25,396 bases of DNA, taken from an uncultured Bacteroidota bacterium (GTDB lineage Bacteria > CLD3 > SB21). Position 1 is the first letter of the stretch; every line of letters begins with the position of its first letter. The stretch spans positions 1-25,396 of the forward strand of contig CAZHUW010000004.1 in the NCBI GenBank assembly GCA_964535295.1, given 5' to 3'. The translations under genes and the position numbers were made by a program. A model generated the notes under the pieces. It searched no databases. It had not been told where the DNA came from and saw only the letters and a program-made list of their open reading frames with translations. Below are positions 1,164-15,175 of the stretch, in pieces.

Positions 1164-2975
1164 ATGCAGGAAGATGAGGTCATGGGTAAAGCTTACGATG
1201 GACGCCTGATGCGGCGTTTGTTGAAGTTTGCCCTGCCTTATAAATATATGTTACTAGGCTCTATCCTGCTACTGATCGCGGCACAAGCTTTCAGCGCCTA
1301 CCGGCCCAAGATCATCCAGGAAGCCATCGACAACGCAATTGTTACGGGTGACCTGAACCGATTGCATCTCTATGCTTTGTATTTTGTGGGTCTGCTGATC
1401 GGCGAATTCATTCTACAATACAGTGTGATCTATCTTACTCAACTGATGGGGCAGAGGATCATATTCGATCTGCGAATGAAATTGTATGCACATTTGGAAG
1501 GGCTGCATCTGCAATTTTTCGACCGTAATCCAGTTGGACGCCTTATCACGCGTGTCACTTCGGATATCGAGTCGCTGAATGAGATGTTTACATCGGGGCT
1601 CGTGTACCTTTTCGGCGATCTTTTTCTACTGTTAGGCATCATCGTATTCATGTTTACGCTCAGCACAAAACTTACAATAGTCACGCTCATCGTCCTTCCT
1701 TTTATTTTCTACATCTCCGTAGTATTTAAAACAAAAGTCAGGGTCAGCTACCGGGAAGTTCGCCTCAAGATATCGGCGCTCAATTCATACATTCAGGAAA
1801 ACATCACCGGCGTGAGTACCGTTCAGATCTTCAACAGAGAAAAGAAGAATTTTGGACGATTTGACGAACTGAACCAAAGCCTCACCCGGTCGCACGTGGA
1901 TTCCATATTCCATTATGCCTGGTTCTATCCGGCAATCAATTTTGCCAGTTCATCAGCCATCGGTCTGCTTTTGTGGTACGGCGGCGGTGAGATCGTGAGT
2001 CAAAACATCACAAAAGGCGAATTGATCGCTTTCATTTTTTACGCGCAATTGTTTTTCAGGCCGATACAGGATCTGAGCGACAAGTATAATATACTCCAGA
2101 CGGCTATGGCGTCGTCCGAGCGCGTTTTCAAATTGATCGATACGCCGAGCCAGATCGTCAATGAAGGCCAACCGGAAGTCTTAGGCGAACTCAACGGCCG
2201 GATCGAATTCAAAAGTGTATATTTTGCATACGATACAAAGCATGTAAAATCCGAGTCGGATTATATACTCAAAGATGTGAGTTTTATTGTCGAACCGGGA
2301 CAGAGTATTGCGCTGGTAGGTGCGACCGGGGCGGGAAAAAGTACCATTATCAATTTAGTTTCCAGGTTCTATGACATTAACCAGGGGCAAATACTGATTG
2401 ATGGAAAAGATATCCGAAAACTGGAAGAACTCGAGCTTCGCAGGAACATTGCAGTCGTTCTCCAGGATGTGTTTCTGTTCTCGGGGAACATCCTGGATAA
2501 TATCCGTCTGGGGCGAACGGATATTTCTCGTGAACAGGTTATTGCGGCGTCCAGAATGGTCGGTGCGGATTCTTTTATAACGGCACTTCCTGGCGGTTAT
2601 GATGAGCCGGTCCAGGAAAGAGGTAGTACCTTATCCGTTGGTCAACGGCAGTTGATCTCTCTGGCCCGCGCACTGGTGATCGATCCCAAAATTCTGGTTT
2701 TGGATGAAGCTACGTCCAGTATTGATACCGAAACGGAGCAACTGATTCAAGCCGCTATTGGTAAATTGATGGCGGGACGGACATCCATTATCATTGCCCA
2801 CCGGCTTTCCACAATACGGCACGTGGATCAGATTATGGTAATGCATAAAGGCCGGATTCGCGAACGGGGGACGCATGAGGAATTATTGGCACAAGGGGGG
2901 ATCTATTACAAATTATATCAACTTCAATATAAGGACCAGGAAATTCCAATTCGCACACAAGGCGTCAGCCTGTAA
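1164..2975 (+). CDS. Fused ABC exporter (6-TM permease plus ATPase), MsbA/lipid-A-exporter-like
   Basis: Hydrophobic N-terminal half. Walker A GATGAGKST, ABC signature LSVGQRQ, Walker B ILVLDEATS and H-loop IAHRLST are all present. The start lies 2 nt after the M16 peptidase stop. Confidence 0.9.
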   Translation: MQEDEVMGKAYDGRLMRRLLKFALPYKYMLLGSILLLIAAQAFSAYRPKIIQEAIDNAIVTGDLNRLHLYALYFVGLLIGEFILQYSVIYLTQLMGQRIIFDLRMKLYAHLEGLHLQFFDRNPVGRLITRVTSDIESLNEMFTSGLVYLFGDLFLLLGIIVFMFTLSTKLTIVTLIVLPFIFYISVVFKTKVRVSYREVRLKISALNSYIQENITGVSTVQIFNREKKNFGRFDELNQSLTRSHVDSIFHYAWFYPAINFASSSAIGLLLWYGGGEIVSQNITKGELIAFIFYAQLFFRPIQDLSDKYNILQTAMASSERVFKLIDTPSQIVNEGQPEVLGELNGRIEFKSVYFAYDTKHVKSESDYILKDVSFIVEPGQSIALVGATGAGKSTIINLVSRFYDINQGQILIDGKDIRKLEELELRRNIAVVLQDVFLFSGNILDNIRLGRTDISREQVIAASRMVGADSFITALPGGYDEPVQERGSTLSVGQRQLISLARALVIDPKILVLDEATSSIDTETEQLIQAAIGKLMAGRTSIIIAHRLSTIRHVDQIMVMHKGRIRERGTHEELLAQGGIYYKLYQLQYKDQEIPIRTQGVSL

Positions 2976-4503
2976 CACGCTCTGGAACGTTTTCCGAAAG
3001 AGTTTGTTGATCTGCGGGCTGGTAACATGGTAGGGAGAATGAAAATAAAGAACCTTTTCCTAATTCACTTTCGACATTAATCTTCCCCTCATGCTGCTGA
3101 ATGATCTCTTTTACAAAAGCCAGTCCTAATCCCGTCCCTTCAATATCTTTTAAATTCTTGTCTTCTTTTGCCCTGAAGAACTTCTGAAAGAGATAATTCA
3201 TGTTTTCTTTTGAAATACCGAAACCGGTATCGCGTACCTCAACGAGTACCGATTTCTTTTGGCTTTTAACCGTGATTGAGATCTCGGAATTTTCAGGGCT
3301 GTATTTGACCGCGTTGGAGAACAAATTCAGTGCTACCTGTCCGATCAGATCCGGGTCAACTAAAACGAGGGGAACAGATTCGAAAGACGTATGTACACGT
3401 ATGTTCCTTTTGTATGCCAAATGGGAGTTGACGGTGAGCATATTGGAAATAACGGTTACTATGTCCACGGGTATCTTTGTTAGCGGGGTTTGTCCGCTTT
3501 CGATGCGGCTGATATCAAGGAATTTATTGATTAGATCGGCCAGCCTCCCCGATTCGTAATGAATGATGTCGACGTATTCTTTTTTTGTGGCGGCCGGCAA
3601 TTCAGGGTCTTTCAAAATCTCGCTGAAACCGGCAATGGAAGTGAGCGGCGATCGCAGTTCATGCGCAACGACATGAACCAGTTCGGTTTTTAACTTATCC
3701 ACTTCCTTTTCTTTGGTGATATTGCGCAAAACGATCACGATGGCGATCAAATCAAAATTATCCATGACCTTTGACGCATGCGCAGCCAAAACGATATTCG
3801 CAGCGCCATGATCGGGATGTATCTCGACCTCCTCTTTGAAGATCTCGTTGGAATTACTTTGTTTGGTCTTGGCGGTCAAAAATTTAAGTTCCGGAAAGAA
3901 GAAGGAAAGGGAACAGCCGTGCACATCCTTTTCCTTGATATTGAACCAGTCTTCAATAACGTCATTAAGCAACAGGATCTCATCCAGTTCGCTGACCACG
4001 ATCACGCCGTCGGCAATATTCCTGAGAATCGCCTCGGTTTTTATCTTCTCACGAATGATTTCATTGATATTGATCTGGTATATACGTTTCAGTTCGAGCG
4101 TCATATAGTTAAATATGCGCGACAATTGAATGATCTCTTCGCTGCTCTGCACATTGACCTTGTGATCAAAATTACCACGCGCGATCTCTTTGGCGCTTTC
4201 GATGAACTGACGTATCGGCGTGGCGATCTCTTGTGCCGTAAACTTGGCGGTGAGATAGGAAAAGATCAGGGCAAAACAGACGGGAATCACCAGTATCCAA
4301 AACAAACGGTATGGGAGATCCTGGAGATCCATCCAGCGCATGATCAGTTCAATAACACCTAAGGTGGCGAGCATAACGGGAAAAATGATCGCAAAAATGC
4401 GGTTGAAAACACTGGACCTCCGCATTTTCCCGCGAACTTTTTTAAACGGATTAGGCATGTATAACCGTACAAAAAATACCCCGGTAAATCCGAGGTCATT
4501 CAT
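2965..4503 (-). CDS. Membrane-anchored sensor histidine kinase (2 TM, HAMP, PAS-like, HisKA, HATPase_c). No cognate response regulator is in the window.
   Basis: H-box HELRSPLTSI, N-box LFSNAVKYS, G1 DTGFGI and G2 GTGLGLAFV are present. There are two N-terminal hydrophobic helices with almost no periplasmic loop, then a HAMP-like segment. The start ATG is revcomp of 4501-4503 and overlaps the stop of the upstream 74-aa ORF (TAATG). Confidence 0.9.
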   Translation of the reverse strand: MNDLGFTGVFFVRLYMPNPFKKVRGKMRRSSVFNRIFAIIFPVMLATLGVIELIMRWMDLQDLPYRLFWILVIPVCFALIFSYLTAKFTAQEIATPIRQFIESAKEIARGNFDHKVNVQSSEEIIQLSRIFNYMTLELKRIYQININEIIREKIKTEAILRNIADGVIVVSELDEILLLNDVIEDWFNIKEKDVHGCSLSFFFPELKFLTAKTKQSNSNEIFKEEVEIHPDHGAANIVLAAHASKVMDNFDLIAIVIVLRNITKEKEVDKLKTELVHVVAHELRSPLTSIAGFSEILKDPELPAATKKEYVDIIHYESGRLADLINKFLDISRIESGQTPLTKIPVDIVTVISNMLTVNSHLAYKRNIRVHTSFESVPLVLVDPDLIGQVALNLFSNAVKYSPENSEISITVKSQKKSVLVEVRDTGFGISKENMNYLFQKFFRAKEDKNLKDIEGTGLGLAFVKEIIQQHEGKINVESELGKGSLFSFSLPCYQPADQQTLSENVPERVTG

Positions 4504-4727
4504 TATTCTTTGAATATTTTTTCTAGTTCCGTGATTAGTTCGTCCCGGTTGGCTTTGGATATTTCACGGCCTTTTAGAGGGAAGTTTGGAATCGTTCGGG
4601 CGAGTTTCCGTAAATTTATGACATTGAAGGAGTGATAATCCTCGTCAGGTTTGGTTAATTTCTTTTTCTTGAGTATAGATTCGTCTTTTTGAACCGATCG
4701 AAATAGCTCCTGTTGAGCTAAGGTCAT
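4503..4727 (-). CDS. Hypothetical 74-aa Lys/Glu-rich protein with no recognisable domain. It is translationally coupled on both sides (BMC-H upstream, histidine kinase downstream).
   Basis: ORF with ATG (revcomp of 4725-4727) overlapping the BMC-H stop as TAATG. Its own stop overlaps the kinase ATG as TAATG. No motif recognised. Confidence 0.5.
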   Translation of the reverse strand: MTLAQQELFRSVQKDESILKKKKLTKPDEDYHSFNVINLRKLARTIPNFPLKGREISKANRDELITELEKIFKE

Positions 4728-5056
4728 TAATTCAGTTTTTTTTTTACGCCGCTACTGTTTTCATAGGGCATTGGCGGGGGCGCGTCTTCATAAACGATTG
4801 ACTCGGTCATTTCATCGGGCCTTGGGATGATATGTACCGAAACGACCTGTCCCACACGCCTTGCTGCTGCTTCACCTGCGGCAACGGAAGCCTGGACGGC
4901 GCCGACTTCACCAACCACTTTGATCGTAACCATGGCTCCGTCTGTAAGTTCTTTGCCGATCAACTTGACATTGGACGCCTTTATCATCGCATCGGCAGCT
5001 TCGATTGCGCCAACAAGACCGAGCGTTTCTACCATTCCTAATGCACGTTCTTCCAT
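4727..5056 (-). CDS. BMC-H shell protein (PduA/EutM/CcmK family, PF00936-type) with a ~30-aa Pro-rich C-terminal extension
   Basis: Canonical motif [26 protein letters not shown]...VHIIPRP. ATG at revcomp 5054-5056 is preceded by an AAGGAAA ribosome-binding site. C-terminal tail ...YEDAPPPMPYENSSGVKKKLN. Confidence 0.9.
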   Translation of the reverse strand: MEERALGMVETLGLVGAIEAADAMIKASNVKLIGKELTDGAMVTIKVVGEVGAVQASVAAGEAAARRVGQVVSVHIIPRPDEMTESIVYEDAPPPMPYENSSGVKKKLN

Positions 5057-5078
5057 CCGTGGCTTTCCTTAAATTAAA

Positions 5079-5360
5079 TTACGCGCCTTTTTTGGGAAGA
5101 ATAATTTCCACTTCAGGGTGCGGTCTCGGAATGACATGCACCGATACCAATTCACCCACTTTTTCAGCGGCTGCAGCACCGGCGTCCGTCGCGGCCTTCA
5201 CAGCACCGACGTCTCCGCGGACCATCACGGTTACATATCCGCCGCCAATCTTCTCTTTGCCGATCAGTTCTACTTTGGCGGCCTTTACCATGGCATCCGC
5301 CGCTTCGATTGCGCCGACCAGGCCCTTTGTTTCAACCATTCCAAGTGCATCAAGTGCCAT
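5079..5360 (-). CDS. BMC-H shell protein, very PduA-like
   Basis: [81 protein letters not shown] is near-identical in pattern to PduA/EutM. ATG at revcomp 5358-5360 sits 7 nt after a GGAGG ribosome-binding site. The ORF track's TTG at 5366 is less likely. Confidence 0.92.
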
Positions 5361-5591
5361 TGTCAATCCTCCTAAAGAAAAATTAAGTTATATGTGTTGG
5401 GTATAGAAAACGTAAGTTGAGTAAATGTTAATTTCGAAAGGTTCTTATTAACAAAAAAGGTTAATCAAATCTCCCGTGAAAGTCAATTAGATTTTTGCAA
5501 CCTTTCAAGCTATTGATTTTCACTTTCTTTTCGCACGCCAAACACATAATAGAGCGCGGCGAATTGACCCAAATATTATTCAACAATTTTC

Positions 5592-8515: not shown

Positions 8516-9229
8516 ATGCCGATGCCTGTATTTAAACGGATTTTGCTGAAACTCAGCGGTGAAGCATTGATGGGAGACCAGTCGTACGGGATCGATACAA
8601 AAATGCTTTCGCAGGTTGCCGAAGAGATCAAATCCGTGAAGGCTTTGGGCGTTGAAATTGCAGTGGTCATCGGAGGAGGTAATATTTTTCGAGGTTTGGC
8701 CGCAAGTGCGAAAGGGATGGATCGCGTGTCGGCCGATCATATGGGCATGCTCGCTACGGTGATCAATTCGCTGGCTCTGCAGGACGCTATAGAAAAAGTT
8801 GGGCTGTTCACCAGAGTGCTGAGCGCGATCAAGATGGAACAGATCGCGGAACCTTTTATCCGCCGCCGCGCTATACGCCATCTTGAAAAAGGACGCATCG
8901 TGATCTTCGCCGGAGGAACGGGCAATCCGTATTTTACCACCGATACCGCGGCTTCGCTGCGCGCAATCGAAGTGGAAGCAGACGTCATTCTTAAAGGCAC
9001 GCGCGTGGACGGCGTTTACGACTCCGATCCGGAAACCAACAAAGAAGCGTTCAAGTTTGATTCGATTTCTTATATGGAAGTGGTCAAAAAAGGCCTCAAT
9101 GTTATGGATGCCACGGCGGTGACCTTATGTATGGAAAATAAGCTACCCATCATCGTATTCAACCTAAAGACGACCGGCAATCTCAAACGTATCATTCTCG
9201 GTGAGAACGTCGGATCGAGAGTGCAATAA
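8516..9229 (+). CDS. pyrH: UMP kinase
   Basis: [12 protein letters not shown]... with glycine-rich [11 protein letters not shown] at 8516 has an AGGAA ribosome-binding site. The track's GTG at 8471 lies inside the tsf terminator. Confidence 0.93.
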
Positions 9230-9339
9230 GTATACGTTGGAAATCCTGTGTAGCCGGCTCGATCAGGAAACAATTTACTTGAATAGAATCGGTATGTATC
9301 ATAAATTTCTGAGCAGGAACTAAACGCAAAAGGTGATGT

Positions 9340-9903
9340 ATGTTTGATCTGAATAAACAATATCATGATACCGAAGAAAAGATGAAAAAATCCTTGGAAG
9401 CGGTTCGTCACGAATTATCCAAAGTTCGCAGCGGACGCGCAACCACCACTCTGCTGGACGGAATAAAAGTCGATTATTACGGTACTCCTACACCGCTCAA
9501 TCAGGTGGGTAATGTTTCCGCACCGGAGGCGCGCTTATTGACCGTTCAGCCTTGGGACAAAAATATGATCCAGCCGATCGAAAAAGCTATTCAGATGGCG
9601 GACCTGGGTCTCAATCCGGCCAATGACGGTACGATGATACGTATTCCGATTCCGGCCTTAAATGAAGAGCGCCGAAAAGAATTGGTGAAGCTGACCAAGA
9701 AATATGCCGAGGACGGACGAGTAGCGATCCGTAATGTACGACGCGATGCGAACGAACACATTAAGAAAGCAGAAAAGGGTCATGAGGTATCGGAAGACGA
9801 TTCGAAACAGGCGCACGACAAGATACAAAAAATGACCGATGCGTATATCAAAAAGATCGATGACATGGTCGCTATGAAAGAAAAAGAGATTATGGAAGTG
9901 TAG
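9340..9903 (+). CDS. frr: Ribosome recycling factor
   Basis: Length and pattern typical of RRF. Conserved position after pyrH. Confidence 0.93.
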   Translation: MFDLNKQYHDTEEKMKKSLEAVRHELSKVRSGRATTTLLDGIKVDYYGTPTPLNQVGNVSAPEARLLTVQPWDKNMIQPIEKAIQMADLGLNPANDGTMIRIPIPALNEERRKELVKLTKKYAEDGRVAIRNVRRDANEHIKKAEKGHEVSEDDSKQAHDKIQKMTDAYIKKIDDMVAMKEKEIMEV

Positions 9904-9933
9904 CCGGTTTTGTAAATAAGAAATAGCGAATAA

Positions 9934-9970
9934 AAAGCCTGTAGGGGAACCGCTCTTACAGGCTTTTGCT
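9934..9970 (+). terminator. Rho-independent terminator after frr
   Basis: GCCTGTA ... TACAGGC stem followed by TTTTGCTTGT. Confidence 0.65.
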
Positions 9971-10065
9971 TGTACCGGCGAAACCGCGCCTTGACTTTAT
10001 GTTTGAATCTTTATAAGTTTGCGGCAGTGCTAGTTCACAGAGATATCCCATCTATTGTCTATCAC

Positions 10066-11820
10066 ATGATGCATCAATTATTTTCTTCGAAAAACGATCT
10101 GAAAAAAATCATTCTGATAGGCCTGTTATTCCTCCTTATTCTGCTGTCCATCATAAGTTTTTTATTTTTTAAGGGCCTTCTGATCGTGTCGTTGCCCGCG
10201 TTGGGAGTTTGTGTCATTTATCTTATTTTTGAATATTTGCAGGGGGACCGCGGACGAAAAAATCAACGAATAACGCCGTTCGGTAAAAGAAACGCTCCGA
10301 TGCCCCAGACTCCGTTGACCAATTATTTTGCGAAACAAAAAGTTCAGCCGGATGAGAAGAATGAGAACTCAATGGATATGCTTGATGATACGCAGGCGTC
10401 GGTCTTTTTTAACCAGACATCGGACGCAATCATTCAGCTTGTTCACCAGACATTTGCGGCGAATACTACATTCTTATATCTTTACAGCGAGGAAGAAAAC
10501 GAACTTGTTCTCCAAAGTTTTCGAACCGAGAGTTCTTTTTTCTCTGCCACAACCCGGAATCCTCTTTCTCAATCCGGTATGAAGCTTTTTGCGGAAGTTG
10601 TAAAGAAACGCGAAAATAAATTATTTGCAGCTCTTGGGCCAGATGAAAGAGGTCTTTTTTACTACGACCAGTATCAGGACGTACACACTTTGATGATCGT
10701 GCCGCTTTTGAGGCGTGGTACTTTACTGGGTGTGGTAGGTGTTGACCACCTTAAAGCTGAACGTTATTCGGATCATCATACTACGTTGCTTGAACAATAC
10801 GGGCATTTGCTGATACAGACGATCCAGAATATCGACGGCGTGTATGTGAAAAATAAGCTTCGCCGGATGTTCCAATCATTGAAAGAATATAATGAGATCG
10901 TAAAAACTGAAGACAGTGAAGAAGCCATATTCAAATATCTGAAAGAGGCTTTGAGTCATAATCTTGAATGGGATACTTTACTGGTTTGGATGCGGGCCGG
11001 ATCGGATATCGAATGGGTGGTAGCGGACGCAGACGGCGCAAAAATTTTGCCGATTGGAACTGCGCATTCACTTGAGGAGAGGCCGGAATGGTCTGCCATT
11101 CAAAATCAAAAAAGATCCTATCGTCCGGATACGGAAGAAAACGGGTCGAAGAAAACTCAGCTTTCCGTTCCATTCGTGGATCACGGACATTGTTTTGGGG
11201 TTTTACACCTGGCATCCGATCAAACGGATGCGTGGGATATGTATGAAGTACAATTTGTGGAGAATCTATGCCACAGCGTCAGTCTTGCATTGGCTCGGGC
11301 GCAGTTGGACAAACACTTGTTTTCCGAAATGTCGCACGATCCGCTGACGGGATTGGATAATTTACAGGCGTTCAACCGCAAGGTTGCCGCGGAGATCCAC
11401 CGTGCGAAGCGCTTTGGTACAACTTTCTCATTGTTGATTTTTTATGTTGATTATATCAGAAATATATATGAAAATTTTGGCGTATCGGCCGGTGATTTTG
11501 TAATCGAGAAAATCGCTGAAATTTTGAAAAGCAGCAAACGGCAGATCGACAGCGCCGCACGTATCAGCAACGACCAGTTCGGACTGATCGTGCTCGAAAG
11601 CAAAAGGGAAGAAGCGCGCGACTGTGCTCAACGGGTACTGCGCAATATCGAAGTCTCGGAGATCGACTTCAACGGCGAATCGATCCCGTTGTCAGCTGTT
11701 ATCGGCATCGCTACTTTCGGCGTCGACGGCGAGGACCAAGCCCAATTGATGTTGTCTGCCGACAAAGCGGTCCAGATCGCCAGAAAAATGAAGGAAATAA
11801 AAATTGGGTTTGTCAGTTGA
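10066..11820 (+). CDS. Membrane protein with 2 TM helices, tandem GAF-like domains and a C-terminal degenerate GGDEF domain (active site SNDQF, I-site RQID retained). Likely a c-di-GMP receptor-type signalling protein.
   Basis: DPLTGLDN ... RQID-SAARI-SNDQF-GLIVL aligns to the GGDEF fold, with RxxD five residues before the degenerate GG(D/E)EF position. GAF-like ...GVLHLASDQ... The start is most plausibly ATG 10066 (MMHQLF...), since the track's 9970 start lies in the frr terminator. No strong ribosome-binding site, so the start is uncertain. Confidence 0.78.
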   Translation: MMHQLFSSKNDLKKIILIGLLFLLILLSIISFLFFKGLLIVSLPALGVCVIYLIFEYLQGDRGRKNQRITPFGKRNAPMPQTPLTNYFAKQKVQPDEKNENSMDMLDDTQASVFFNQTSDAIIQLVHQTFAANTTFLYLYSEEENELVLQSFRTESSFFSATTRNPLSQSGMKLFAEVVKKRENKLFAALGPDERGLFYYDQYQDVHTLMIVPLLRRGTLLGVVGVDHLKAERYSDHHTTLLEQYGHLLIQTIQNIDGVYVKNKLRRMFQSLKEYNEIVKTEDSEEAIFKYLKEALSHNLEWDTLLVWMRAGSDIEWVVADADGAKILPIGTAHSLEERPEWSAIQNQKRSYRPDTEENGSKKTQLSVPFVDHGHCFGVLHLASDQTDAWDMYEVQFVENLCHSVSLALARAQLDKHLFSEMSHDPLTGLDNLQAFNRKVAAEIHRAKRFGTTFSLLIFYVDYIRNIYENFGVSAGDFVIEKIAEILKSSKRQIDSAARISNDQFGLIVLESKREEARDCAQRVLRNIEVSEIDFNGESIPLSAVIGIATFGVDGEDQAQLMLSADKAVQIARKMKEIKIGFVS

Positions 11821-11832
11821 TCAGGAGGAGAC

Positions 11833-12105
11833 GTGGTTCTAGGAAAAGTCATCGGGAATGTCTGGGCAACGCGAAAAGATGAAAAACTAACGGGCGTCAA
11901 ATTGATGATCGTCCGGAGCGTGGATCTGGATTATAAAGAGAAAGAAACCTTTGTGGTTGCCGCGGACTCGGTTGGTGCGGGTGTGGGGGAGATAGTACTG
12001 TATTGTACCGGGAGTTCGGCGCGGCAAACTGAGATATCACAGGACAGGCCGGTGGATGCCGTGATTATGGCCATCGTGGACAAATTAGAATTTGATAAAA
12101 AATAA
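11833..12105 (+). CDS. BMC-P vertex (pentamer) shell protein, EutN/CcmL/PduN family (PF03319-type)
   Basis: VLGKVIGNVWATRKDEKLTGVKLMIV...ADSVGAGVGEIVLYCTGSSAR...PVDAVIMAIVDKL. GTG start 12 nt after the GGDEF-like gene stop, with an AGGAGGA ribosome-binding site. Confidence 0.88.
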   Translation: MVLGKVIGNVWATRKDEKLTGVKLMIVRSVDLDYKEKETFVVAADSVGAGVGEIVLYCTGSSARQTEISQDRPVDAVIMAIVDKLEFDKK

Positions 12106-12123
12106 ATTACCGTATAACTGTTC

Positions 12124-12387
12124 ATGAACTTAGCGCGTATAATAGGTACTGTGTGGGCGACGAAAAAACACCCCAGTCTGGAGGGGTTTTCCCTAAAGAT
12201 CATACAACCGCTGACATCCGGTATGGAAAAGATCGGAAGCCCAATTGTTGCAACGGATTCAGTAGGCACAGGACAACCCGATGAGTTGGTGTATTATGTG
12301 ACCTCCGGAGAAGCACCTATTCCGCTGGATAAGAAAATGCCGACAGATGCGACGATCATCGGCATTGCAGAACGGATCGATCGCTAG
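12124..12387 (+). CDS. BMC-P vertex shell protein, second paralog
   Basis: MNLARIIGTVWATKKHPSLEGFSLKIIQPL...ATDSVGTGQPDELVYYVTSGEA...DATIIGIAERI matches the EutN/CcmL pattern. Confidence 0.85.
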   Translation: MNLARIIGTVWATKKHPSLEGFSLKIIQPLTSGMEKIGSPIVATDSVGTGQPDELVYYVTSGEAPIPLDKKMPTDATIIGIAERIDR

Positions 12388-12456
12388 TGTCGGATCCCGC
12401 AGGGTTTGTCTTGAGTAACGAAAAAAATTCTATTCATCTCATCCAAAGTGGGTTTT

Positions 12457-13299
12457 ATGAACTTTGCAGAAAAAAGCAATGATCTCATAGATAAATATCT
12501 TCAGGAGATCGGCAGTGTTCCGCTTCTGAATCCCGAAGAAGAAATTGAGCTGGCCAAGAAGGTAAAAGACGGGGACGAATTGGCTCTTGAAAAACTGACG
12601 AAAGCAAATCTGCGTTTCGTTGTCAGCGTTGCCAAACAATATCAAAACCAAGGATTGTCGCTTAACGATTTGATCAACGAAGGAAATATTGGATTGATCA
12701 AGGCGGCGAAACGGTTTGACGTAACACGCGGATTTAAATTCATTTCCTATGCCGTATGGTGGATTCGGCAATCGATCCTGCAGGCTTTGGCGGAACAATC
12801 CCGTGTAGTAAGGCTCCCGCTCAATAAGATCGGAACACTGAATAAGATCGGTAAAGTTTTCAGCGATCTCGAACAGGAATTTGAACGCGAACCGAGTTCG
12901 GATGAAATTGCCGACATGTTGGATATGTCCTCGTTTGAGGTGACAAACACTATGCAGATGTCGGGACGGCATGTATCGATGGATGAGCCGATCCACGATT
13001 CAGAAAACAACACGCTGATGGATGTGATCGAAAACGAACAGCAGGAGCCTCCCGATCAGGACCTGCTGACGGAGTCGTTGCGAATAGAAATCCAACGCGC
13101 GCTGGAAACCCTTTCGGCGCGCGAGGCCGAGGTTGTTAAATTATATTTTGGGCTTGACACGGACCATCCGCTAACCCTCGAAGAGATCGGCGAACGTTTT
13201 GACCTTACGCGTGAACGCGTGCGCCAGATCAAAGAAAAAGCTATACGCCGCCTGCGCCACGCTTCCCGCAGCAACGTGCTTCGGCATTACCTTGGCTGA
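12457..13299 (+). CDS. RNA polymerase sigma-70 family factor. It is primary-like (RpoD/SigA) but short (about 280 aa, no region 1.1 or non-conserved insertion), as in Bacteroidetes/FCB SigA.
   Basis: Region 2: [29 protein letters not shown]. Region 4.2: [33 protein letters not shown] at 12457 is preferred over the GTG at 12448. Confidence 0.88.
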
Positions 13300-13424
13300 C
13301 ATCCTGCTTCGTTCCAAAAATTAAAAAAACGTTTGATACCTATATTTTTTTTTGCTACTTTCTCGCCCGTTAAAATTGTCGGATTCGGACGAGTTATATG
13401 TTGTCATTCTACAGGAGATTCTAA

Positions 13425-14174
13425 ATGAATATTATTGTGTGCATGAAGCAGGTGCCGGATAGTGAGACGCGCGTCAAGGTTAATCCGGACGGCAGATCAC
13501 TGGATCTTTCGGCAGTAAATTTTGTGATCAATCCCCATGACGAATTTGCGATCGAAGAAGCGATTCGCCTGAAGGAAAAATTCGGCGGCGAAGTGACGGT
13601 TCTTACTTTAGGTCCAGAACGCGCAGAAAATGATATACGGAAAGCGCTCGCGATGGGAGCTGACAAAGCCGTCTTGCTCAAAACGGACGCCGGTTTTAAC
13701 GGCGATGTTGCGCTAGCCCTTTCGGAACAGATCAAATCAATGTCGCACGATCTTGTTCTCTTCGGGAAACAGGCTATCGACGAGGACAGCTCGCAGATGC
13801 CGCAAATGGTGGCCGAAATGCTCGATCTTCCCTGTGTTACCGTGGTAGTTAAACTGGACGTGAATCCGGAGTCTAAGAGCGGCACTGCCGAACGTGAGAT
13901 CGAGGGCGGAAAAGAGATCGTCGAATTTTCATTACCGGCGGTCATTGGAACTCAAAAAGGGCTTAATGAACCTAGATTACCGAACTTAAAAGGTATTATG
14001 GCGGCAAAGAAAAAACCTCTCGAGAAGAAAGATCCGATTGGTACTACTGCGATGACAGAAGTGGTTGGATTGGAATTACCCCCGCCAAGGCCGGCCGGAA
14101 AGATCGTGGGAAAAGGCACCGAAGCGGTTCCCGAATTGCTTCGTTTACTTCACGAAGAAGCCAAAGTCATTTAA
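13425..14174 (+). CDS. etfB: Electron transfer flavoprotein beta subunit
   Basis: N-terminus MNIIVCMKQVPD is typical of EtfB. AGGAG ribosome-binding site. Confidence 0.92.
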   Translation: MNIIVCMKQVPDSETRVKVNPDGRSLDLSAVNFVINPHDEFAIEEAIRLKEKFGGEVTVLTLGPERAENDIRKALAMGADKAVLLKTDAGFNGDVALALSEQIKSMSHDLVLFGKQAIDEDSSQMPQMVAEMLDLPCVTVVVKLDVNPESKSGTAEREIEGGKEIVEFSLPAVIGTQKGLNEPRLPNLKGIMAAKKKPLEKKDPIGTTAMTEVVGLELPPPRPAGKIVGKGTEAVPELLRLLHEEAKVI

Positions 14175-14206
14175 GTTCGAGTCATAAAAATATTTGGAGA
14201 TATTAT

Positions 14207-15175
14207 ATGTCAATATTAGCATTTGCAGAACAACGCAACGGCGCCTTTCGTAAATCAGGATTTGAAGTAGCCAGCGAAGCCAAAAGGCTTGCGGATAAGC
14301 TTGGAACAACTGTTTCAGCACTTGTTGTTGGTTCCGGCGTAGAAAAAATAGCATCGGAGTTAGGGAAATACGGTATTTCAAAAGTATATGTTATCGATGA
14401 TGCCGGGCTTGAAAAATATTCCACGGAAGGATATACGCAGGCAATCGAAGAAACGGTGAAAAAGGCATCCGCCAGCATCGTTTTATTGCCCGCATCATCA
14501 ATGGGAAGAGATCTTGCTCCGCGTATTGCCGGAAGGCTTAAAGCGGGGTTGGCCAGCGACGTGACCCATTTCGACATTGATAATGGAAAACTCGTTATTA
14601 CGCGTCCGATTATGGCCGGAAAAGTGTTTCAGAAATTGGTCATCAAAACAGCCTGTCAGGTCATTAGCTTGCGCCCCAATGTATTTCGTCCCCAGGAGAG
14701 TGCTGTTCAGGCCGCCGTTGAAAAACTTTCTGTTTCGATCAAACCTTCGCGTGTAAAAGTCAAAGAGATGGTGGTCGAATCCGGTAAAAGAATCGAATTG
14801 ACTGAAGCCGATATCATTGTTTCCGGCGGGCGTGGATTAAAAGCCCCTGAAAACTGGGAAATGATTGTCAAACTGTCAGAAGCTTTGGGTGCGGCACACG
14901 GCGCCTCGCGTGCGGTTGTAGATGCCGGATGGCGCTCGCATGAGGAACAGGTGGGCCAAACGGGCAAAACAGTCAGTCCTCAACTGTACATTGCGGTCGG
15001 CATTTCCGGTGCGATCCAGCATTTGGCCGGTATGTCCAGTTCAAAGTACATCGTGGCCATTAATAGCGATGCTGAAGCGCCGATCTTTAAAATATCCGAT
15101 TATGGCATTGTCGGAGACCTGTTCGAAATTCTTCCGGAATTGACGAAACAGGTGACTCAAATGAAAGGTAAATAA
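14207..15175 (+). CDS. etfA: Electron transfer flavoprotein alpha subunit
   Basis: C-terminal FAD-binding signature [19 protein letters not shown]. It follows etfB after a 32-nt gap. Confidence 0.92.

Follow-up and report, generated by a model that had tools for sequence, protein, structure and literature searches.

Here we describe a gene cassette in a 25,396-nt stretch of DNA from an uncultured Bacteroidota bacterium (assembly GCA_964535295.1, contig CAZHUW010000004.1, positions 1-25,396 of the forward strand; hereafter the window). In this cassette a membrane protein with a degenerate GGDEF domain (dGGDEF) is encoded immediately upstream of two vertex genes of the bacterial microcompartment (BMC) shell, which are BMC-P genes of the EutN/CcmL family that we call EutN1 and EutN2, and of a sigma-70 gene. 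By gene calls and family models, the window is a stretch rich in housekeeping genes from a Bacteroidota-group genome. It starts with an M16 peptidase and an ABC exporter, followed on the minus strand by a HAMP-PAS histidine kinase, a 74-aa open reading frame (ORF) and two BMC-H shell genes. The genes rplM, rpsI, rpsB, tsf, pyrH and frr then lead up to the dGGDEF gene and the EutN/CcmL pair, after which come the sigma-70 gene, etfB, etfA and rho, and the window closes on the minus strand with an aminotransferase gene and ftsZ-ftsA-ftsQ-murB-murC-murG. The features of the cassette are these:

10066..11820, + strand: degenerate-GGDEF gene, encoding a transmembrane (TM) hairpin, GAF, helix, GAF, helix and degenerate GGDEF domain (Pfam, AlphaFold2, Foldseek, orthologues).
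10096..10251, + strand: codons of the N-terminal TM hairpin, residues 11-62 (AlphaFold2 helices; Kyte-Doolittle peak of 3.2 over residues 10-60).
10387..11235, + strand: tandem GAF domains, residues 108-235 and 285-390, with the highly conserved helix that joins them, residues 236-279 (Pfam, AlphaFold2, Foldseek).
11332..11811, + strand: GGDEF-fold domain with a dead active site, residues 423-582 (Pfam, alignment to the GGDEF crystal structure 3ign, Foldseek, Protein Data Bank (PDB) sequence matches).
11539..11550, + strand: RQID, the RxxD motif of the primary inhibitory site (I-site; R492, D495), beneath RQSD of 3ign and present in 14/14 members of the window's clade.
11566..11580, + strand: SNDQF in place of GG(D/E)EF, beneath GGEEF of 3ign in an ungapped alignment.
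11632..11634, + strand: R523, the third I-site residue, equivalent to PleD R390, invariant in the window's clade and Lys in other clades.
11823..11829, + strand: AGGAGGA ribosome-binding site of EutN1 (direct sequence reading).
11833..12105, + strand: BMC-P vertex gene 1, EutN1 (EutN/CcmL, 90 aa, GTG start; PF03319, 108.7 bits, positions 1-83 of 83).
12124..12387, + strand: BMC-P vertex gene 2, EutN2 (EutN/CcmL, 87 aa; PF03319, 78.5 bits, positions 1-81 of 83).
12457..13299, + strand: group 1/2 sigma-70 gene (280 aa with the ATG at 12457 as start, 283 aa with a GTG at 12448; regions 1.2, 2, 3 and 4 found).

The ORF of the dGGDEF gene is real, and its orthologues begin at the same MM or MI residues; the length of 585 aa given in an initial annotation of this DNA counts the stop codon, and the protein has 584 residues. 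That annotation described a membrane protein with two TM helices, tandem GAF domains and a GGDEF fold, and on this architecture Pfam, AlphaFold2 and Foldseek agree. The GGDEF domain was recognised far above threshold both by PF00990 (94.7 bits against a cut-off of 23.8; residues 423-575, profile positions 2-157 of 161) and by the NCBIfam model TIGR00254 (95.4 bits against 37.4), and the models GAF, GAF_2 and GAF_3 exceeded their Pfam cut-offs over two GAF stretches. An AlphaFold2 model built on 14 orthologues (mean pLDDT 80.5) predicts a TM hairpin (helices 11-33 and 35-62), a disordered linker (63-104), GAF1 (108-235), a helix (236-279), GAF2 (285-390), a further helix (392-421) and the GGDEF domain (423-582), so that the predicted linker helices measure 44 residues between GAF1 and GAF2 and 30 residues between GAF2 and GGDEF. 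Foldseek matched the C-terminal domain to the GGDEF domain of 3ign (TM-score 0.89, root-mean-square deviation 2.0 Å), and also matched the tandem-GAF protein CyaB2 (1ykd); taken as a whole, the chain falls among sensor diguanylate cyclases and proteins with tandem GAF domains. Mean identity within the window's clade is 0.67 for the degenerate GGDEF domain, 0.71 and 0.74 for the linker helices, 0.59 for GAF1, 0.53 for GAF2 and 0.35 for the TM hairpin. Because the GGDEF domain is better conserved than the GAF domains or the TM hairpin, the dead domain is evidently under selection.

The structure 3ign, in which the GGDEF domain is bound to cyclic di-GMP (c-di-GMP), aligns to the dGGDEF protein without gaps at 32% identity, and the placement of SNDQF and RQID beneath its GGEEF and RQSD bears out both motif assignments of the initial annotation. 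We carried PleD residues through the same alignment, using the established PleD numbering (D327, D329, N335, D344, E370, E371 and R390). Metal-binding D327 is replaced by Y460, guanine-binding N335 by Y468, the glycine pair by SN and E371 by Gln; D329 (as D462), D344 (as D477) and R390 (as R523) are kept, and the E370 position is occupied by D503, which is invariant within the window's clade. The N335 and D344 columns are insert states in hmmalign, and those two positions were read from the pairwise 3ign alignment alone. In all 64 family members considered, namely 14 from the window's clade and 50 broader-family homologues from metagenomes and other clades, the GG(D/E)EF motif is degenerate, and no clade has Asp in the D327 column.

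The protein therefore lacks what marks an active cyclase (the GG(D/E)EF motif, and the metal-binding Asp and the Asn at the D327 and N335 positions) and has what marks an I-site: RxxD (492-495) five residues upstream of the GGDEF motif position, and a third Arg, R523, 18 residues past F505. Judged from these residues, the catalytic site is dead and the protein is predicted to be unable to make c-di-GMP; the Y460, Y468 and SN replacements leave the active site deader than the initial annotation had seen. The I-site triad R492, D495 and R523 is invariant in all 14 window-clade sequences, which are 35-90% identical. For the annotated view of the protein as a c-di-GMP receptor and not a cyclase, the dead active site and the intact triad of the window's clade speak in favour; as a statement about the family it falls short, since RxxD is not family-wide.

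The genes that follow are tightly packed. The dGGDEF gene ends with the TGA at 11818-11820, and after a gap of 12 nt, which holds the AGGAGGA, EutN1 starts with a GTG at 11833; EutN1 stops at 12105, and the ATG of EutN2 follows 18 nt later at 12124. These junctions, reported in the initial annotation together with the two EutN/CcmL genes, can be read directly off the sequence, and both genes match PF03319 well above the cut-off of 25 bits. EutN2 is a distinct paralogue of EutN1, the two being about 31-35% identical. By family match both small genes are true BMC-P genes, and their products are predicted to form pentamers. In relatives of the window the gaps measure 6-12 nt. The operon once delimited as 10066-12387 is right in its tight dGGDEF-EutN-EutN junctions and wrong at its end: it does not stop at 12387, as the sigma-70 gene lies directly downstream.

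We find this arrangement throughout the window's clade (loci used for comparison carry L numbers). Nine orthologous loci came from a scan of GTDB species genomes, and each belongs to a metagenome-assembled genome (MAG) of an uncultured Bacteroidota or an unclassified 'bacterium'. All 13 window-clade orthologues (35-90% identity) have a degenerate xxD[QRK]F motif together with R492, D495 and R523, and the order dGGDEF-EutN1-EutN2-sigma70 is kept in 14/14 window-clade loci that extend downstream, as mapped by tblastn. The cassette is intact despite different flanks in L007, L013, L014 and L016; in L007 and L008 the flanks are wholly different, as ptsH-ptsI precede the cassette and clpB-dnaJ follow it. 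Across the window-clade loci EutN1 shows 81-93% identity, on par with ribosomal proteins, and the BMC-P genes taken together span 69-93%, whereas dGGDEF is just 35-76% identical. That the degenerate motif, RxxD and gene order are kept down to 35% identity argues that their co-occurrence is not due to chance. The initial annotation had named, as a finding that would undo the association, relatives in which the BMC-P pair is never adjacent to this gene; in every relative with enough sequence the pair adjoins it.

Additional small genes occur within the cassette in this clade. The most distant window-clade relatives have a 120-aa Cupin_2 gene between the BMC-P genes (L007:12028-12390 and L008:12028-12390); EutQ-type cupins are known microcompartment accessories. 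Several relatives, among them L001 (12333-12626), L002 (12543-12824) and L005 (12232-12507), have a conserved helical ORF of 91-97 aa, which matches no family, in the space from EutN2 to the sigma gene; it is absent from the window, where the gap is 60-69 nt, and from L004. This coiled-coil ORF has no meaningful similarity to the 74-aa ORF beside the BMC-H genes, and neither matched the family models.

The cassette extends well beyond the window's clade. Homologues of EutN1 about 70% identical are found in Ignavibacteriae, Rhodothermaceae and Chloroherpeton thalassium. In the complete genome of the latter (CP001100; L031) the order is GAF-GGDEF, EutN, EutN, sigma70, and in an Ignavibacteriae MAG (L032) it is GAF-GAF-GGDEF, a PF01676 gene, EutN, EutN, sigma70. 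A metagenome scan with an EutN1 alignment yielded 80 loci (L034-L113), on which profile searches were then run; an upstream homologue was counted if it matched both the N-terminal and the C-terminal family profiles on the same strand, in loci with more than 3.5 kb upstream. So defined, a family homologue lies upstream of the BMC-P genes in 45/49 metagenome loci (directly adjacent in 7, and with one gene between in 38), and in 4 BMC-P loci none was detected by these profile searches. In 51/57 distant loci the BMC-P pair is followed by a sigma70 gene at a distance of no more than 1.5 kb. Searching from the other side with a dGGDEF profile, we obtained 1,142 proteins at E <= 1e-20, mostly annotated as Ignavibacteria or Melioribacteraceae. 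The two Melioribacteraceae loci looked up in this way, L114 and L115, both read dGGDEF-deoB-(two small ORFs)-EutN-EutN-sigma70, and from the dGGDEF side the cassette is conserved in 16/16 loci. Nearly all family members have a hydrophobic N-terminal segment, the Chloroherpeton type being the exception.

Some members of the wider family deserve separate mention. In the Ignavibacteria clade the E370 position has become Lys or Arg and the R390 position Lys. A distant active relative, P0014, has the architecture TM-GAF-GGDEF with an intact GGEEF. Upstream of the BMC-P pair or of deoB, two of the four BMC-P loci in which no homologue was detected, a Rhodothermaceae MAG (L033:6588-7964) and a metagenome contig (L070:3457-4797), encode a protein of about 450 aa without a Pfam hit; compared with the family profile this ORF gave a marginal hhalign probability of 6-9%, and it may be a far-diverged dGGDEF homologue.

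The shell genes of the window have a counterpart among known microcompartment types. FRAG1 is a shell-only, fragmented BMC type most prominent in Ignavibacteria (Sutter et al. 2021, PMC8217296) and found also in Kryptonia, Bacteroidetes, Chlorobi and Rhodothermaeota (PMC8217296, Supplementary Data 2); it comprises a BMC-P triplet (green, grey and orange clades) and two BMC-H genes, with no enzymes and no encapsulation peptides (PMC8217296). The window likewise holds a pair of BMC-H genes:

4727..5366, - strand: two BMC-H shell genes, 109 and 95 aa (PF00936, 86.3 and 103.8 bits).

Six housekeeping genes, rplM through frr, separate this pair from the BMC-P pair, and family-model annotation found no AldDh, PTAC or signature enzyme within the 25 kb window. 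The relatives that carry the cassette belong to Bacteroidota, Ignavibacteriae or Chloroherpeton. By taxa and by their dispersed, shell-only layout, the shell genes of the window fit FRAG1 and would not be an isolated oddity, with two BMC-P paralogues in the window versus the FRAG1 triplet; a third paralogue, if present, would lie outside the window. The BMC-H pair would then be another piece of this scattered set of shell genes, and the conserved cassette dGGDEF-(deoB)-BMC-P-BMC-P-sigma70 probably belongs to the FRAG1 gene set of Ignavibacteria, Chloroherpeton and related Bacteroidota.

The terms GGDEF, PF00990, diguanylate and sigma are absent from the text of the catalogue and its 18 text supplements, a search that did not cover the locus figures, and the FRAG1 entry lists no phosphopentomutase or other enzyme (PMC8217296). 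A literature search linking GGDEF, diguanylate cyclase or c-di-GMP with microcompartments or BMC-P returned only unrelated papers or cyanobacterial reviews. Having found no paper that links a GGDEF protein with BMC vertex genes, we agree with the initial annotation that the association of dGGDEF with BMC-P appears to be undescribed.

In most metagenome loci deoB stands between the family homologue and the BMC-P genes. The PF01676 insert of L032 is this phosphopentomutase gene (NF003766, 524 bits against a cut-off of 256). In 52/80 metagenome loci deoB immediately precedes EutN1, and it is absent from the window and from L001-L017. Its positions between dGGDEF and the BMC-P pair are:

L032:6757-7914: deoB (NF003766).
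L114:7890-9056: deoB.
L115:7873-9036: deoB.

DeoC is the signature enzyme of SPU microcompartments, and by analogy the presence of deoB inside the cassette may point to (deoxy)ribose-phosphate chemistry for the cargo-less FRAG1. In L114 a small ORF and a PIN-domain gene, together resembling a toxin-antitoxin pair, are inserted between deoB and EutN1 (9077-9651); in L115 this site is occupied by two small ORFs without annotation.

The sigma-70 gene is the last conserved member of the cassette, followed by etfB-etfA (window 12457-15175; also in L004, L005, L013 and L017). Its product is 77-98% identical across the window's clade and finds its best NCBIfam matches in RpoD models, and is therefore probably a primary sigma factor. 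The sharing of an operon between vertex genes and a housekeeping sigma factor is unusual in itself.

Among characterised proteins, PelD of Pseudomonas aeruginosa is the best functional analogy for the window's clade. Like the dGGDEF protein it is membrane-anchored and carries a GAF domain together with a catalytically inactive GGDEF domain that keeps RxxD, and it is encoded inside the operon of the structure that it controls, acting through its I-site. Unlike PelD, which has four TM helices and a single GAF domain, the dGGDEF protein has a two-helix hairpin and a pair of GAF domains linked through long signalling helices. In its GGDEF domain it resembles true cyclases (32% identity to 3ign), and the window contains no pel genes. 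Membership of the PelD family was rejected: no PelD model is among the Pfam and NCBIfam hits, and no PelD chain occurs among the best 60 of 82 PDB sequence matches or the top 50 Foldseek matches. A dead active site paired with an intact RxxD, as in the window's clade, is also found in PopA (Caulobacter), SgmT (Myxococcus) and CdgA (Bdellovibrio). Their I-site serves as a c-di-GMP receptor, and their output is protein contact or localisation and the recruitment of partners, not catalysis. They differ in having REC or histidine kinase sensor modules in place of TM-GAF-GAF and in having no link to microcompartments, and the dGGDEF family, unlike these proteins, includes a large sister clade that has lost RxxD. 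The best whole-chain structural matches are the sensor cyclases Idiomarina PadC (5llw) and P. aeruginosa Dcsbis (4zmu), which share with the window protein the order of sensor (GAF or phytochrome), coiled-coil and GGDEF domain, implying a parallel dimer. These cyclases are active, whereas in the window protein the GG(D/E)EF motif, the metal-binding Asp and the guanine-binding Asn have been lost. In terms of its predicted structure, the dGGDEF protein is a decayed sensor cyclase; receptors or pseudo-enzymes with a degenerate GGDEF domain are known, and what is new is the structural setting.

In light of these observations we propose, with somewhat more doubt than conviction, that dGGDEF is a signal-receiving pseudo-enzyme that arose from a GAF-GAF-GGDEF sensor cyclase and acts by protein contact on the vertex pentamers. 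The protein would dimerise through its long helical linkers in the manner of sensor cyclases. Its GAF domains would receive a signal, and in the window's clade the I-site residues R492, D495 and R523 may additionally bind c-di-GMP, the signal then being relayed at the membrane through contact between proteins, with no enzymatic step. As the most economical target we would see the vertex pentamers, which are translated from the same mRNA; by holding or releasing them, the protein could set the timing of shell closure or the positioning of the shell, or could provide membrane tethering. Control of shell capping or assembly, already suggested in the initial annotation, is something that we infer from gene order and operon structure. 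We consider it unlikely that the mechanism holds in its most complete form, as a ligand-gated membrane switch (gated by c-di-GMP in the RxxD clades and by a GAF ligand in all) that binds both pentamers and controls the closure, number or positioning of FRAG1 compartments.

Several observations weigh against our proposal. Of the 50 broader-family homologues, 16, Chloroherpeton included, keep the I-site motif as R-x-Y-D; 21 (the Ignavibacteria type) have a conserved T-P-L-N instead and 13 have other residues, and the cassette is retained all the same. Since RxxD is replaced where the cassette is kept, the link between the family and BMC-P cannot depend on c-di-GMP being bound at the I-site. The TM hairpin is missing from the Chloroherpeton-type members, and the sole canonical GGDEF gene that we observed is in a distant locus, L087. 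The FRAG1 compartment itself is putative; the catalogue reports neither cargo nor encapsulation peptides for it (PMC8217296). Finally, the sigma-70 gene is so regular a member of the cassette that the sigma factor could be the real partner.

A role as c-di-GMP receptor would on this evidence apply to some clades at most, the window's among them, and the invariance of the triad suggests that the I-site may matter there. In the TPLN clade the I-site loop is constrained yet chemically different, and may bind another ligand or partner. Examples of TPLN are found in L032, L036, L045 and L055, in the column that matches window nt 11539-11550. The canonical cyclase of L087 is a fragment reading RSVD...GGDEF (11589-12257, minus strand) about 5 kb from the cassette on a Chloroherpeton-like metagenome contig; c-di-GMP signalling therefore exists in at least part of the group.

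If the sigma factor were the functional partner, it would be modulated by or co-regulated with dGGDEF, for example by membrane sequestration on ligand binding, and the BMC-P genes would be mere co-passengers. The gene lies directly downstream in all window-clade loci as well as in the 51/57 distant loci, often with only a few to about 30 nt between it and the BMC-P genes (L032, L114, L115), and c-di-GMP-dependent control of a sigma factor has a precedent in Streptomyces, where RsiG and sigma-WhiG form a sigma/anti-sigma pair under c-di-GMP control. Membrane anti-sigma proteins seldom hold housekeeping-like factors, however, and this one is of group 1/2, 77-98% identical between relatives and matched by RpoD models. 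No anti-sigma domain is recognisable in the dGGDEF protein with Pfam or NCBIfam, and the two partners can come apart: L033 keeps the BMC-P pair with the sigma gene 3.4 kb away on the other strand, and in L070 it is 5 kb off. These points make a partnership with sigma quite improbable in our estimate.

The gene order might instead have been inherited, or be shared for expression only, with dGGDEF serving as a general sensor or c-di-GMP receptor for the envelope, motility or biofilm formation. This would suit the housekeeping surroundings (rplM-rpsI-rpsB-tsf-pyrH-frr upstream, etfBA, rho and ftsZ downstream, and rpoA-rplQ preceding the cassette in Ignavibacteria), and also the much faster evolution of dGGDEF (35-76% identity) than of the BMC-P genes (69-93%). 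We think it unlikely nonetheless, as the order of the cassette is kept though the flanks of L007, L031, L032, L033 and the window differ completely; none of the insertions (deoB, the cupin in L007, the PIN toxin pair in L114) disturbs the outer order; gaps measure 6-12 nt; and conservation spans class-level distances, with 45/49 loci counted from the BMC-P side and 16/16 from the dGGDEF side. An altogether different account would have the degenerate active site still bind nucleotide, so that the protein would be either a non-canonical cyclase of weak activity or, like PdeA (CC3396), a sensor of GTP. Some degenerate GGDEF domains do bind GTP allosterically, and D462 (D329), D477 (D344) and D503 (the E370 position, invariant in the window's clade) are retained. 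Against this, D327 and N335 are both Tyr, both glycines are gone and E371 is Gln; the D327 position is Asp in no clade, and the Ignavibacteria clade carries Lys or Arg at E370. We hold residual nucleotide binding of this kind to be very improbable.

Should the ligand-gated switch prove true, it would be the first case in which a second messenger or sensor controls the assembly of a microcompartment through protein action. In that case deoB would suggest that the hidden substrate is (deoxy)ribose-phosphate, and the organelle would be linked to core growth control by its co-transcription with a primary-type sigma factor. FRAG-type BMCs belong to abundant environmental lineages, and their shell genes have been catalogued without a known cargo, regulator or function. 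The cassette provides first concrete leads, in the form of a candidate regulator or anchor and a candidate substrate class, the (deoxy)ribose phosphates. Chloroherpeton thalassium, in which we see the cassette, is a cultivable carrier, and cultured Melioribacteraceae such as Melioribacter roseus come into consideration by family only. For c-di-GMP biology, the cassette brings to view a large family of degenerate GGDEF proteins, with more than 1,100 sequences in one clade, whose sister clades keep or replace the I-site and may be viewed as a natural experiment on the gain and loss of receptor function.

The intergenic region upstream of the dGGDEF gene contains the following elements:

9933..9967, + strand: terminator-like hairpin after frr (15-bp stem, -23.9 kcal/mol, z = -3.9 versus shuffles), then UUUUGCUUG.
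9998-10005 and 10014-10021, + strand: two TAnnTTTG matches (Bacteroidota-type -7 element), a weak promoter candidate within the 160-nt leader, suggestive only.

The hairpin, which was found by folding and not flagged by a simple consensus terminator scan, makes the dGGDEF gene the first gene of a new transcription unit. Across the window TAnnTTTG is not enriched (20 found versus 15.9 expected). A scan of 9200-13500 for sigma-70 consensus promoters and terminators gave counts no higher than in shuffles and nothing useful within the operon, and the consensus scan found no + strand terminator between 11820 and 12460. An Rfam scan of the whole window, in which a c-di-GMP or other riboswitch was sought in the 160-nt leader, gave no match.

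A signalling gene also accompanies the other shell fragment. The position of the BMC-H pair is conserved only in the closest relatives, L009 and L011 (tblastn map). On the minus strand of the window (2965-5366) the BMC-H pair is followed by the 74-aa ORF, which has no family match, and by the overlapping HAMP-PAS histidine kinase. As the kinase lies on the BMC-H strand, the second shell fragment, too, is joined to a signalling gene. L001 differs in that its BMC-H gene is followed by a 1563-aa protein without a Pfam hit in place of the 74-aa ORF and kinase; in L009 the arrangement occurs without a detectable 74-aa ORF, and in L011 it is complete.

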